DNA of 59,023 nt, from the NCBI GenBank assembly GCA_039630415.1, contig JBCNVB010000012.1:1-59023 (forward strand), read 5' to 3'. The position numbers were made by a program, and so were the translations under genes. Origin of the DNA: a bacterium. GTDB taxonomy: Bacteria > DRYD01. Positions 4,700 to 59,023 of the stretch are shown here, one piece after another (position 1 is the first letter of the stretch; every line of letters starts with the position of its first letter). Under the pieces are notes generated by a model. It saw only the letters and a program-made list of their open reading frames with translations. It ran no database searches and was not told the origin of the DNA.

Positions 4700-4954
4700 A
4701 TGGAAAAACTATATAATTTGCTTAATATAATCTTTATAATTATCTCCATACTTCTTATCATTGGAGTAGCAAGCTATGTAACAGAAAGGTCGGGACTAAG
4801 TGGAATAATGGGACAAACCCCTGAATCTAAATCAACAAAAAAGTTAACCAAAGAAGAGATGATACAAAAATGGACCTCAATTGTAGCCTATATTTTTCTC
4901 TTTCTTTCCTTTCTGCTTAGTATAGTATCTCAGCAAATACATAACAAATTTTGA
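4700..4954 (+). CDS. secG: Preprotein translocase subunit SecG-like
   Basis: 84 aa with two TM helices and a Gly-rich loop (SGLSGIMG); QKWTSIVAYIF resembles SecG TM2. Confidence 0.65.
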   Translation: MEKLYNLLNIIFIIISILLIIGVASYVTERSGLSGIMGQTPESKSTKKLTKEEMIQKWTSIVAYIFLFLSFLLSIVSQQIHNKF

Positions 4955-54964: not shown

Positions 54965-55563
54965 TACTCAGATTTCCTAAGAAAGTCAAATAATTTCCTG
55001 AATGCGATGTACCTATGGCTAATTGAGCATTTAAGAGACATGTCCATTTGGGCAAAAGTCATTCCCAAATCAGGATAGTAGAATATAGGATCAAATCCAA
55101 AACCATTTTCTCCCATAGGTTTTTCTGCTAGATATCCTTCAACGATCCCTTCAAAAGAAAAATATCTAGAAAAATCAAATAGTATAACTACAGTACAAAC
55201 ATATCTACATTTGGTATATGACTTATCTAAAGTACTAGCCATTTGGGAGATAGCAATATTTTTTTGGTGTTGGTTAAGACCAGGAAAGATTTTGCTTGTT
55301 TTGGTACCGGGGAACCCAAGTAAACATTCTATTTCTAATCCACTATCTTCTGCTATTACAGGCCTAAAAACTTGATGATATACATACTGCGCCTTTTTTA
55401 GTGCATTTTCGTAATAGGTATTGAAATTTTCAATATCCTCTGGTATATCTTTATCTATTTTTTTCAAATCCAACCTAAAATCTGGGTATTCCTGTTTGTA
55501 CTTATTGAGTATATGAATTATTTCTCTATATTTACTTTCGTTTTTTGTTGCTAGGTAAAACAT
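54961..55563 (-). CDS. rdgB: Non-canonical purine NTP pyrophosphatase (RdgB/HAM1)
   Basis: ATKNESK, ENA..KA, EDSGL, GFGFDPIF, K..ISHR. Confidence 0.92.
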   Translation of the reverse strand: MFYLATKNESKYREIIHILNKYKQEYPDFRLDLKKIDKDIPEDIENFNTYYENALKKAQYVYHQVFRPVIAEDSGLEIECLLGFPGTKTSKIFPGLNQHQKNIAISQMASTLDKSYTKCRYVCTVVILFDFSRYFSFEGIVEGYLAEKPMGENGFGFDPIFYYPDLGMTFAQMDMSLKCSISHRYIAFRKLFDFLRKSEY

Positions 55564-56381
55564 TGCTCAATATCCTCATGCATTTTTAGTTTTGGATTAT
55601 TTTCATCCAACTCGCTAAAATCCATGCTATCAAATACCTTACCATATTTGCCAAATATCAGGTAAATCAAACTTTTAGTAATAAATGGATTCAGTTGTAC
55701 GTATTCTCTGTAGATATTTTGTTTGAACATTTTTTCAATAAGGAAATTTACAAATAAATTGAAGCTTGTAATGTAAAAGAGATTAATTACTTCGCTTTGT
55801 TTATAATGGTTTATTTTGTGTATTAATACTTCCATAAATTTTTTGACACTTATGTAGGGGAATAGGAAGTTATCAGGAAAAACTGGTTTTATTCCTAGTT
55901 TCAAAATTCTATGGAAAATTTTAGTCCATAGACTATCTTGATTTAACACTATGCCAAGTCTAAATATAATGTGATCTCTGTTTTTAACTGTATTTTCCCA
56001 TCTTTCAAACTCTTTTCTTAAATACTGTGAATATATCCATACTGCTGAAGGTATTATAAATACAAATTTTTTTTTGACTATTGAAGATAATGTTTGAGTA
56101 AATCTTATTCTTGTATTCCAAATAAGGTAGTCTCTAAGAGGCTGAGGGAAAAGAAAAGCTTTAAAAATATTGTACCCTGCAAAGTTGATTATAAAGCCTT
56201 CACCCAGATTATTAGTTACCTTTTCTATTTCAGAATAGGGAAATATATTGAGGTCTTTATCCAAATTGTTTTTACTTGTGGTAAATATGTATATTTTGAA
56301 GCTATGTTGAATTTGATGTAGATAGGTGAGTAATTTCTGTGTTAAAAAGGAGTTTAGAGATAGTATGATTAGGTTAGTCAA
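55551..56381 (-). CDS. Degenerate NAD-dependent epimerase/SDR (TIGR01777-like)
   Basis: INFAG, WNTRIRFT, PSAVWIY, WE, FRLGIVL; likely TTG start at 56381 behind GAAGGAG. Confidence 0.55.
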   Translation of the reverse strand: MTNLIILSLNSFLTQKLLTYLHQIQHSFKIYIFTTSKNNLDKDLNIFPYSEIEKVTNNLGEGFIINFAGYNIFKAFLFPQPLRDYLIWNTRIRFTQTLSSIVKKKFVFIIPSAVWIYSQYLRKEFERWENTVKNRDHIIFRLGIVLNQDSLWTKIFHRILKLGIKPVFPDNFLFPYISVKKFMEVLIHKINHYKQSEVINLFYITSFNLFVNFLIEKMFKQNIYREYVQLNPFITKSLIYLIFGKYGKVFDSMDFSELDENNPKLKMHEDIEQCFT

Positions 56382-57702
56382 GTATGATTTCTCCTTCAAG
56401 TCCCCAAAGATAAGCATTAGATATTTTTACCTTATAGAATTGGCCCGATATATCTGACTTAGGTTTGTCAAAAACCACTATTTTGTTGGTTTCGGTTCTT
56501 CCTTCCCATTTATCTGGGTTTTTATCGGTTGGACCTTCCACCAATATTTCTACTGTTTTACCTATGTATTCTTTATTTTTCTCTTCGGTTATTTTATTTT
56601 GTTCTTCTATTAGCTTATAAAGTCTTTTCAGTCTTTCTCTATATGGGATGGAATTGGGATAAGTAGCTGCTTTAGTACCCTCTCTTTCACTATAAGCAAA
56701 CATAAAAGCTTGATCAAATCTAACTTTTCTAATTACTTCCAATGTATCGTTAAATTGTTCTTCAGTTTCGCCAGGAAAACCAACTATTATATCAGTTGAT
56801 ATTGAAATATACTTGTTTCTTGATCTAAATTGATTAACTATATCAAGGAATTGTTCTACCGTATATCTTCTTGCCATTTTTCTGAGAACTTCATTATTTC
56901 CGCTTTGCAATGGTAAGTGAATATGTTTTGCTATTTTAGGACTACTTGAAATAACTTCTATTTGCTTGGAATTGAAATTAGTTGGGTAAGGAGATGTAAA
57001 TCTTATCCATTTTATGTTTCTAACTATCTGAGTTGTTTCATATAAAAGGTCAGCAAAATCGTATTCAAATTTTTTATCTATTCCGTAGGCATTAACAGTT
57101 TGCCCAAGATATATTATTTCCTTGTAACCTTTTTCATCTAGTTGTTTAACTTCATTAAGAATTTCTTGTTTATCTCTAGACTGCATTTTTCCACGAGTGA
57201 AAGGAACTATACAAAATGTACAATAGTAATCACAACCGAACATTATGGGTATGTAAGCGGAGTATTTAGATAGCCTTCTTGGTGGTATATCTGGTTCTAC
57301 TCTACCGGTGAAATCTACATCTACTACTTTTTTTCTTGAGTACTTAATTTCTTGAAGTATTTGTGGTAAAGCAGAGATTCTATGGGTTCCTAGAACTATA
57401 TCTACATGATCTATTGAAGATATTTTGAGATAATCTTTTTGAGCAAGACAGCCTGCTACTATTACTATCATATCCTTTTTTTGATTTTTGATTCTTTTAA
57501 GAGCTCCGAGTCTACCATAGAATTTATTCTCAGCATTTTTTCTGACTGCACATGTATTAAATACTACTATGTCTGCGTCTTGCTCATTATCTACATTTTT
57601 TGCTCCTAGTTTTTCTAAAATAGATCCTATTAGTTCACTATCATATTCGTTGGCCTGACATCCATATGTTTTTATGTAATATTTATACCCTTGTAAGCTC
57701 AT
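56374..57702 (-). CDS. miaB: tRNA ms2i6A37 methylthiotransferase MiaB
   Basis: TYGCQAN, NTCAVRKNAE, GCDYYCTFCIVP, RFTSP, HLPLQSG, TDIIVGFPGET, TRAM domain. Confidence 0.95.
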   Translation of the reverse strand: MSLQGYKYYIKTYGCQANEYDSELIGSILEKLGAKNVDNEQDADIVVFNTCAVRKNAENKFYGRLGALKRIKNQKKDMIVIVAGCLAQKDYLKISSIDHVDIVLGTHRISALPQILQEIKYSRKKVVDVDFTGRVEPDIPPRRLSKYSAYIPIMFGCDYYCTFCIVPFTRGKMQSRDKQEILNEVKQLDEKGYKEIIYLGQTVNAYGIDKKFEYDFADLLYETTQIVRNIKWIRFTSPYPTNFNSKQIEVISSSPKIAKHIHLPLQSGNNEVLRKMARRYTVEQFLDIVNQFRSRNKYISISTDIIVGFPGETEEQFNDTLEVIRKVRFDQAFMFAYSEREGTKAATYPNSIPYRERLKRLYKLIEEQNKITEEKNKEYIGKTVEILVEGPTDKNPDKWEGRTETNKIVVFDKPKSDISGQFYKVKISNAYLWGLEGEIILD

Positions 57703-58057
57703 CAATATAATATTTTTATACTCTATATCATTTACCCTGTTTTATTAAACTTCATTTAACATCATATAAGAGACACATCTTATGATGAAAATTGTAGATC
57801 AGGGTAGCTACTATTTTTCACCTGAACTTGCAAACCTAGATAAATATCAAATCTATAGTGTAGTGGTTATACATAGCAAGAATCGGAATATATTATGGTA
57901 CAACAGTTATTCATTATTCATGAAACAGAGAAACTGTTTATAATTTACTTGAGTATCTTTCAATATTTAACAAAAGGAAAATCCCTTTTCTAAATTTAAC
58001 GAAGCATATAGTAGGATATTAAGAATTAGATTCACAACTTATATAGAGGGGGGGTAA

Positions 58058-58579
58058 ATGAGAGTATACTTTATTCAATTGTTAACTATAAGTATATTAT
58101 ATACAATAATTTTCATTTATTCTTGTAAATCAAAAGGTATCAAATTCTTTGGGTTCAACAATTTTTCTTATACACCTGCAATTGGAAAGGTTTCCAACAC
58201 TTTTGGAAATCCATTAGGCAGAGACATAGATTCAGATGGAGATAATGATTCTGCTGTTGTTCTTCATAATATCGCTGGCGGGAATGGAAATGATTATAGT
58301 GCTTCAATATATGTAGATCAAAACGGTAAAATCTATATCACTGGAATTAGTTGGAATGGTCCGAATTATGATCTAATAGTAACAAGACTAAACAGTGATG
58401 GTAGTTTAGATGCCACGTTTGATACTGATGGAAAGGTTGTTCTTCATAACATTGCTGGTGGGAATACAGATGATAGAGGTCATTCAATCTATGTAGATCA
58501 AAGCGGTAAAGTTTATGTTACTGGTTATAGCAATGGAAGTGGAACAAGTATTGGTCTTATAGTAGTGAAGATAGAATAA
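58058..58579 (+). CDS. Putative lipoprotein with two delta-60/SBBP-like beta-propeller repeats
   Basis: Lipobox-like IYSC after a hydrophobic stretch; two 60-aa-period repeats VLHNIAGGN..D...SIYVDQ.GK.Y.TG.S; RLNSDGSLDATF linker. Confidence 0.75.
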   Translation: MRVYFIQLLTISILYTIIFIYSCKSKGIKFFGFNNFSYTPAIGKVSNTFGNPLGRDIDSDGDNDSAVVLHNIAGGNGNDYSASIYVDQNGKIYITGISWNGPNYDLIVTRLNSDGSLDATFDTDGKVVLHNIAGGNTDDRGHSIYVDQSGKVYVTGYSNGSGTSIGLIVVKIE

Positions 58580-58581
58580 AG

Positions 58582-58785
58582 TATGCTGTTGGTTACGGCT
58601 TGAATAGAGCAGATTATAATTTAATATTTGATTCTGGGGCTACATTATTCTTCATAACATAGCTGGAGGTAACGGGATTGATAGAAACTATTCAATATAC
58701 GTAGATCAAACTGGTAAAGTTTATGTTACAGGATATAGTTGGGGAAATGGAACTTCCTGGGATCTAATAATTACAACCCTTAAAA
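58582..58785 (+). pseudogene. Frameshifted relic of further propeller repeats
   Basis: YAVGYGLNRADYNLIFDSG, a frameshift at GGGG 58636-58639, then GYIILHNIAGGNGIDRNYSIYVDQTGKVYVTGYSWGNGTSWDLII; the second frame has no ATG/GTG/TTG start. Confidence 0.75.
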
Positions 58786-58817
58786 TAACTCGATATTGTT
58801 TTCAAATCTCTGTACAC

Positions 58818-58911
58818 GTTTAAATTCTTCTTTGGCACATTTAAACTCTGCATCTTTACCTGCAGAAGCTAGACCCTGGGTAGTTTAAATTCCTCTTTGG
58901 CACATTTAAAC
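58818..58911 (-). CRISPR. Mini CRISPR array: two 29-bp repeats and one 36-bp spacer
   Basis: GTTTAAATTCTTCTTTGGCACATTTAAAC (58818-58846) and GTTTAAATTCCTCTTTGGCACATTTAAAC (58883-58911) differ by one base. The reverse complement ends GGAATTTAAAC, like the ATTGAAAC-ending type I/III repeats. Orientation is inferred. Confidence 0.75.
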
Positions 58912-58970
58912 CCGTGCTGCCTCAAACCTCTAGCTAGGATTTTTTACCCTCCATAACATATTCTATTAGT

Positions 58971-59023
58971 GTGAATAAAAAGCTTCCGATTGGTGTCAGC
59001 TCTTTTGAAAAAATCAGATCTGA
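58971..59023 (+). CDS. Start of an AAA-ATPase-like domain protein (PF09820 type, commonly fused to a PD-(D/E)XK nuclease); truncated by the window edge
   Basis: GTG start, MNKKLPIGVSSFEKIRS, matching the characteristic KKLPIGxxxFxxIR N-terminus; only 17 codons are visible. Confidence 0.65.
   Translation, partial: MNKKLPIGVSSFEKIRS

Follow-up and report, generated by a model that had tools for sequence, protein, structure and literature searches.

The 94-nt array at positions 58818-58911 of the window (the whole stretch of 59,023 nt that was analysed, an entire contig referred to below as C4) is a genuine CRISPR mini-array and not a chance repeat. The reading that we favour, at a probability of roughly 60%, is that this isolated one-spacer array forms part of the type I-B system found on a different contig (C9) of the same genome, that it would be read on the minus strand, that it was dispersed together with the 5' flanks of genes of the DUF1703 type, and that it survives, with a truncated leader, as a weak or decaying relic. 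The genome is represented by a 1.40-Mb assembly of 31 contigs that is 89% complete, with a GC content of about 31-32%.

The array consists of two 29-nt repeats separated by a 36-nt spacer, an organisation already described in an earlier note on this DNA, where the one-base mismatch between the repeats had gone unmentioned. Repeat 1 (58818..58846, minus strand, GTTTAAATTCTTCTTTGGCACATTTAAAC) is leader-distal and thus the older one, and carries a T at position 11 in plus-strand numbering. It is followed by the single spacer (58847..58882, minus strand), whose crRNA sense is its reverse complement, and by the leader-proximal repeat 2 (58883..58911, minus strand, GTTTAAATTCCTCTTTGGCACATTTAAAC), which is identical to a solo repeat found at C24:4811-4839. 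Position 11 (T/C) is the sole difference between both repeats, which are 97% identical with a spacing of 65, and the T variant of repeat 1 also occurs in leader-distal or solo repeats of contigs C24 and C26. Allowing up to three mismatches, the repeat had exactly two matches in the window where 100 shuffles gave an expectation of 0.00, and relatives of the repeat were found elsewhere in the genome, so that the claim of a real CRISPR mini-array was borne out. The absence of a third repeat was likewise verified over the whole of contig C4, even at up to six mismatches; the contig ends 112 nt past repeat 2. The sequence does contain the 8-nt inverted repeat ends (GTTTAAAT/ATTTAAAC) and, within the spacer, the 6-bp hairpin TCTGCA/TGCAGA, to both of which attention had also been drawn. 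Yet the folding of the 94-nt minus-strand RNA was not better than that of shuffled sequence (z = -0.37) and the terminal stem of the repeat is absent from related repeat variants, so that neither feature can be taken as evidence of function. A scan of positions 57000-59023 against Rfam (E ≤ 10) found no CRISPR-DR family, its sole match being a chance snoRNA.

The stretch is contained, as contigs, in one public DNA run. A first public contig spans positions 58700-58910, that is the unique flank, repeat 1, the spacer and repeat 2, and a second one spans positions 58887-58980, from repeat 2 into the unique short leader; both are reproduced with 0 differences. None of the listed public contigs bridges the spacer to the leader, and the link between spacer, repeat 2 and short leader therefore rests on the assembly. 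These observations bear on the possibility of an assembly artefact, either a longer array collapsed into a shorter one, as the earlier note had allowed for, or a chimeric join through the 29-nt repeat at the contig end. The close proximity of the contig end, the location of the array inside multi-copy sequence (repeat, leader and DUF1703 gene) and the many contigs of the run carrying the repeat with other spacers (87 aligned; joints from 58914/58915 back to 58883) are all compatible with such an accident. It is nevertheless considered very unlikely: although no piece spans the whole stretch, the two partial ones are exact and repeat 1, spacer and repeat 2 are reproduced within one of them, the one-base difference means that repeats 1 and 2 cannot have been merged with each other, and the same architecture was found on three other contigs.

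A whole-genome search for the repeat at up to six mismatches produced 17 matches on five contigs. Besides the window, the repeat is present at five other places of the genome, one being a nine-repeat array (C9:15-565, beginning 14 nt from the contig end) and the remainder being solo repeats or arrays of one or two spacers. They comprise solo repeats at C12:1607, at C24:4811 and at C24:3051, the last with a decayed repeat one spacer-length upstream, and three repeats at C26:56395-56553, the outermost of which has six mismatches. On C24, a 16-nt partial copy of the 5' half of the repeat (CGTTTAAATTTCTTTC, positions 4840-4855) adjoins the solo repeat at 4811-4839.

The nine-repeat array of C9 is followed by four open reading frames in the order cas6-cas8b-cas7-cas5, which is of type I-B, and the contig ends inside cas5. 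The assignments of Cas6 (TIGR01877, 87 bits), of the I-B Cas7 (TIGR02585, 179 bits) and of Cas5b (TIGR01895, 103.5 bits) are based on profile scores; the position of cas8b, between Cas6 and Cas7, is occupied by a 498-aa protein with a weak Cas_CXXC_CXXC match only. In the 89%-complete assembly, cas1 and cas2 had no significant match and cas3 had only weak matches below the family cut-off. Since 11% of the genome is unassembled, this non-detection does not show that the three genes are absent. The earlier note had proposed that a type I/III system encoded elsewhere uses the array. The existence of a cognate type I system was supported, since an array of nine repeats with type I-B cas genes was found on C9 when the genome was searched as that note had suggested, and use of the window's array in trans is putative. 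For type III effectors, the whole-genome search gave only weak csm1 matches below the cut-off and no match for cmr2. Its statement that the window is devoid of cas genes was not contradicted either: the six open reading frames scanned with Pfam between 53360 and 58579 contain no Cas family, and cas1, cas3, csm1 and cmr2 had no match on contig C4 in the whole-genome searches. The dispersed repeats differ from those of C9 at 2 of 29 positions and share with them the last 20 transcribed nt, and on this basis the array of the window appears to belong to the C9 type I-B system. The two differences may also mean that a closer parent array lies in the unassembled 11%.

Being almost symmetric, the repeat gives no firm indication of the strand by itself. 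The orientation was instead deduced from the flanks. At all sites of this genome, the region to the right of the last repeat shows a common flank, CCGTG ... TGCGTCAAACCTCC / TTTTGCGTCAAACCTCC, and the same right flank was found in all eight arrays with at least 100 nt of flanking sequence from Omnitrophota, Pacearchaeota, Ratteibacteria, Hydrothermales and other metagenome-assembled genomes (MAGs); the leader alignment (A1) comprises 18 sequences. A Cas2 homologue (PF09827, E = 4e-16) is located on the side of this flank, directed toward the array, in 14 of 14 loci, three from the same genus and 11 from other genomes, and in none on the opposite side. As the flank is located between cas2 and the array in each of these loci, it corresponds to the leader, and with the leader on the right the array of the window should be read on the minus strand. 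In a separate examination of 14 loci, degenerate repeats were found opposite the leader in six, the other eight being cut by a contig end or having none that could be seen, and those of C26 and C24 in this genome are likewise opposite the leader. A plus-strand reading was considered from the commonest repeat variant of other genomes, which in the plus orientation of the window ends in ATTGAAAC, and was ruled out by the evidence from cas2, leader and degenerate repeats. AUUUAAAC is the only repeat end that is invariant across all variants seen, in agreement with the 8-nt handle predicted in the earlier note, whose assumption of minus-strand transcription is upheld by the same three lines of evidence. 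We thus predict a minus-strand reading of the array and a crRNA with the handle AUUUAAAC.

The leader of the window's array is homologous to the cas-adjacent leader and has kept both its first five nucleotides and the conserved box. The former (CCGTG, 58912..58916, minus strand) are conserved in related arrays too, as CCGYR adjoining the first repeat; the latter persists as a remnant (CTGCCTCAAACCTCTAGCTAGG, canonical form TTTTGCGTCAAACCTCCAG; 58917..58938, minus strand). Between positions 58916 and 58917, about 48 nt are missing that are present in the full-length leaders of C9, C12, C26 and other phyla. In the full leaders of this genome (C9, C12 and C26), CCGTG and the box are separated by about 49-54 AT-rich nucleotides, and repeat plus leader of C26 are 76% identical over 99 nt to C9:537-635. 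C4 and the two C24 copies (C24a and C24b) retain only one base at this place, while the deletion on C18 spans from the middle of the repeat into the box. In the full leaders of other genomes, TATAAT-like and TTGACA-like elements could be recognised by eye immediately upstream of the first repeat. When the window end, C9 and C26 were scanned with promoter and terminator consensus sequences, the counts did not exceed those of shuffles, in long and short leaders alike. Judging from its position and AT-richness, the segment lost from the window's copy would be the promoter-proximal part of the leader, and this loss points to a relic that is weakly expressed or in decay, not to an array in active growth.

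A pattern for the short-leader form gave six matches in other GTDB genomes, none of which (0/6) had the 5' half of the repeat, and these were discarded as chance; the 27-nt junction of repeat 2 and short leader had no match in metagenome contigs. Beyond the leader box that follows each of the two repeats on C24, a 16-nt unit (GTTTGTAAAAACTTTC) is repeated in tandem about 2.5 times; a similar unit occurs on C12 (1704-1760), and the cas-adjacent leader of C9 has a single copy of it.

The spacer has a GC content of 0.50 for a genome mean of 0.32, a value reached by only 2.1% of the 36-mers of the genome, and six of the eight complete spacers of C9 are similarly rich (0.47-0.57). This foreign-like composition, common to the window's spacer and those of C9, suggests a true acquisition from a GC-richer foreign pool. 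No exact protospacer was found in IMG/VR or in JGI metagenome contigs, and a pattern in which every third base was left free did not match in IMG/VR. By blastn, phage records gave four matches at chance level (best E 0.03) and plasmid records none; exact searches with three C9 spacers in IMG/VR were equally negative. Within the genome, there was no self-target of 16 nt or more above chance. The searches of the host genome and of viral databases that the earlier note had proposed thus revealed no target. A contig from the same DNA run carries the repeat with a spacer closely resembling, without being identical to, spacer 4 of C9, which suggests that the population has another spacer directed at a variant form of that target.

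Two of the functions put forward in the earlier note depend on these results and on the surroundings of the array. The first is that of a regulatory cr-like RNA (CreA/CreR, Shmakov 2023 type), with which Cascade would bind to, and silence without cutting, a partly complementary promoter (of cas6, of cas8 or of a DUF1703 gene). Mini-arrays of two repeats whose spacer is regulatory are reported to be common in type I loci, those of type I-B being near cas6 (PMC10120712), and the module discussed here adjoins a gene start at six places. However, no seed of at least 11 nt to the spacer occurs genome-wide, both seeds of 10 nt fail to extend (13-14 identical positions out of 36), and exact matches in the regions preceding cas6, cas8 and the DUF1703 genes reach 8 nt at most. 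The array is neither in nor next to the cas locus, its repeats are not degenerate, its position is not kept in relatives, and the spacers differ from module to module, implying no common target. The regulatory role, which gained no support from these searches, is considered very unlikely. The second function, that of an element-borne array, was not supported either: no phage or plasmid family was found among the six flanking open reading frames scanned, which are of housekeeping type according to Pfam.

The last 5.7 kb of the window encode MiaB-like, Ham1 and secretin proteins in addition to the start of a DUF1703 gene. Between the Ham1-family and MiaB-like genes, a 288-aa open reading frame (55551-56417, minus strand) had no Pfam match at E ≤ 0.01. 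To the left of the array, the open reading frame at 58058-58579 encodes a beta-propeller-repeat protein (DUF5122/SBBP matches). After it comes another copy of its 109-nt repeat, the third, in which the frame is broken. The left flank itself (58645..58817, plus strand) is made up of this decayed third copy of a beta-propeller ('delta-60'-like) repeat and of 34 nt unrelated to it. This flank resembles neither a leader nor a degenerate CRISPR repeat. The open frame of the third copy enters CRISPR repeat 1 and stops at its TAA, and the beta-propeller gene looks truncated by whatever placed the module there.

On the right, the contig ends within the first 53 nt of a DUF1703-type gene (58971..59023, plus strand), which has a GTG start, belongs to the PF09820 (AAA-ATPase_like) family and points away from the array. 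Proteins of this type combine PF09820 with a PF08011 (PD-(D/E)XK) domain. From the leader box to the gene start (58918-59009), the sequence shares 96% identity with the corresponding region of a paralog on C26, named Y. In the whole genome, 15 PF09820 matches were counted and tblastn yielded 17 segments on 11 contigs, many copies being located at contig ends, which indicates that this family breaks the assembly. Exact overlaps of 133-141 nt between contig ends were observed for C18/C12 (141), C24/C21 (133), C24/C31 and C27/C29, whereas the end of C4 overlaps nothing; the joining of C24 to C21 brings five DUF1703 genes in tandem. Once contigs were joined, a CRISPR module was found upstream of six of the 12 visible DUF1703 gene starts, namely those on C4, C12 (P and Q), C24 (A and B) and C26 (Y). 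The module of C12-P is reduced to a half repeat fused to the box, as seen on C18. All six non-cas modules are situated 55-171 nt upstream of the DUF1703 start and in one orientation, gene and array diverging, and two of the four assessable neighbouring genes are broken by stop codons. Every module has its own spacers, and those of C4, C24b and C26 share the T-variant distal repeat, which could mean that spacers were taken up after dispersal and that the arrays were once active.

DUF1703 families are reported to expand and recombine (PMC6387759), and the module most likely spread along with the upstream ends of these genes as paralogs were duplicated and recombined with one another. Duplication and recombination of the family is the most likely mode of dispersal, and paralog recombination was probably the vehicle on which the upstream module travelled.

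The lineage comparison covered ten genomes of the family, this one and nine others. Expansions of PF09820, with 5-33 matches each, were found in eight of the ten, among them seven of the nine others. The leader box (at up to two mismatches) occurs five times in this genome, once each in three of the nine others and not at all in the remaining six; cas2 is on the same contig in two of the three box-bearing relatives, and the contig of the third ends inside the leader. None of the nine other genomes has the module at its DUF1703 genes, and none of the relatives searched has it at the syntenic site. In one relative (G003), a DUF1703 gene comes after the same propeller-gene remnant, and no CRISPR module separates the two. 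Dispersal of the module before DUF1703 genes is thus specific to this genome among the ten searched. In other genomes, the repeat family was found in 54 stretches, 11 with cas2 alongside; the closest repeat variants were in records named Candidatus Calescibacterium, and none of these 54 arrays is adjacent to a DUF1703 homologue. One MAG (L038, L048, L053, L054, L055, L063 and L074) has at least seven small arrays of one to seven repeats with a near-identical leader of about 120 nt, next to genes unrelated to one another, which indicates that such modules can disperse without DUF1703 genes. The same MAG shows, on L056, a further solo repeat that has kept only 11 nt of leader.

The regular association in this genome raises the question of a functional link, in which the module would have been recruited as a control element or insulator of DUF1703 genes, or the genes themselves would be CRISPR accessories; its retention before these genes would thereby be explained. 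The location of six of six dispersed modules upstream of a DUF1703 start, in one orientation, argues for it. In the relative G005, a different array, with a 30-nt repeat in five copies, ends some 150 nt before the start of a DUF1703 gene, and PF09820 ATPase domains are named among the domains of phage-defence systems (PMC10952713). Conversely, neither the nine family genomes, seven of them with numerous PF09820 matches of their own, nor the 54 arrays of other genomes repeat the association; distances and leader forms vary, two of the neighbouring genes are pseudogenes, and recombination among paralogs accounts for the pattern without any function. Such a link is therefore improbable. Equally doubtful is a broader version, in which the leader-repeat module would have been recruited before DUF1703 ATPase-nuclease genes as a CRISPR-linked control element in a hot-spring lineage, or would spread by itself through integrase-type ectopic insertion. 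If either were true, DUF1703 genes would be accessories or target sites of a CRISPR-associated class not described before. The G005 array (C36 (L080), 9-331) is unrelated to the one studied here: its repeat has 0 matches in this genome, and its two gene-nearest repeats are degenerate.

If the array is or was expressed, its minus-strand transcript would be cut in the repeats by Cas6 to release one crRNA, in which the AUUUAAAC handle would precede the 36-nt spacer and the 5' portion of the following repeat. Cascade loaded with this crRNA would target a foreign element of higher GC content than the host. The main rival to our reading is that this pathway is still at work, the array being an active immune guide in trans whose transcript starts in what is left of the leader or at a promoter nearby and is processed by the C9 Cas6, and which is maintained by selection as a memory and perhaps still able to take up spacers. 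The nearly intact repeats, with the same last 20 transcribed nt as those of C9, and the foreign-like GC content of the spacer are consistent with it, as are the particular spacers of each module and the T-variant distal repeat of C4, C24b and C26, which would be expected from turnover after dispersal. Isolated arrays with copied leaders are functional in P. aeruginosa, and leader plus one repeat are said to be enough for acquisition (PMC13142298). On the other hand, the leader has lost its 48 nt or so both here and in two other copies, cas1, cas2 and cas3 were not found in the incomplete assembly, the broken genes among the assessable DUF1703 neighbours suggest a decaying region, and no protospacer was found in IMG/VR, in JGI metagenome contigs or in phage and plasmid records. 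An active guide is accordingly regarded as rather unlikely, and the leader-truncated relic as the preferred interpretation.

Beyond the individual array, the repeat family, which has been widely transferred, has a leader box (TTTTGCGTCAAACCTCCAG) that is shared by bacteria as different as the Calescibacterium type and Omnitrophota and by a Pacearchaeota MAG, and this box fixes the orientation of arrays where the repeat itself is near-symmetric and misleading. Recombination in an expanded gene family can scatter minimal leader plus repeat units around a small genome, and any of these units could give rise to a new array. The natural series of long, short and fused leaders could serve to map the leader parts on which transcription and the uptake of spacers depend in this I-B system.

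Several known systems resemble the one described here. Bult et al. (1996) reportedly described 'long repeat / short repeat' elements in Methanocaldococcus jannaschii that are dispersed leader plus short-repeat modules. In these elements, as in the L038-L074 MAG, whose repeat family and leader box are the same as those of the window, many scattered small arrays, some with one to four repeats, share the same conserved leader. In both of these cases the flanking genes are unrelated, whereas every copy of the present module adjoins a DUF1703 paralog and the leader is shortened in half of the copies. Regulatory mini-arrays of type I-B and CreA/CreR (PMC10120712) have in common with the window's array two repeats, one spacer and a type I-B affiliation; it differs from them by its distance from the cas locus, its non-degenerate repeats, the lack of any promoter complementarity found and a position that is not conserved.

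The expansion of DUF1703 genes in Cardinium cCpun (PMC6387759) provides a parallel for the host region, with many tandem and dispersed paralogs, many of them truncated at contig ends, and frequent recombination. The passages on that expansion mention no CRISPR sequence, and the leader and repeat carried along appear to be specific to this genome among those searched. For the array itself, the closest documented counterparts are isolated arrays with a copied cas-adjacent leader such as the type I-F CR3 of Pseudomonas aeruginosa, for which an origin has been proposed (PMC13142298) by duplication or recombination of a minimal leader plus repeat unit and the subsequent acquisition of independent spacers. 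Like CR3 as described there, the array of the window is far from cas genes, with a near-identical repeat and a leader homologous to cas-adjacent ones. Unlike CR3, it has one spacer and an internally truncated leader, it exists in at least six copies rather than one, and these copies are tied to the upstream regions of paralogs and not to mobile elements. The window's array is thus an isolated mini-array of a known kind, the less common feature of which is that six or more copies are carried upstream of genes from an expanded ATPase-nuclease family.
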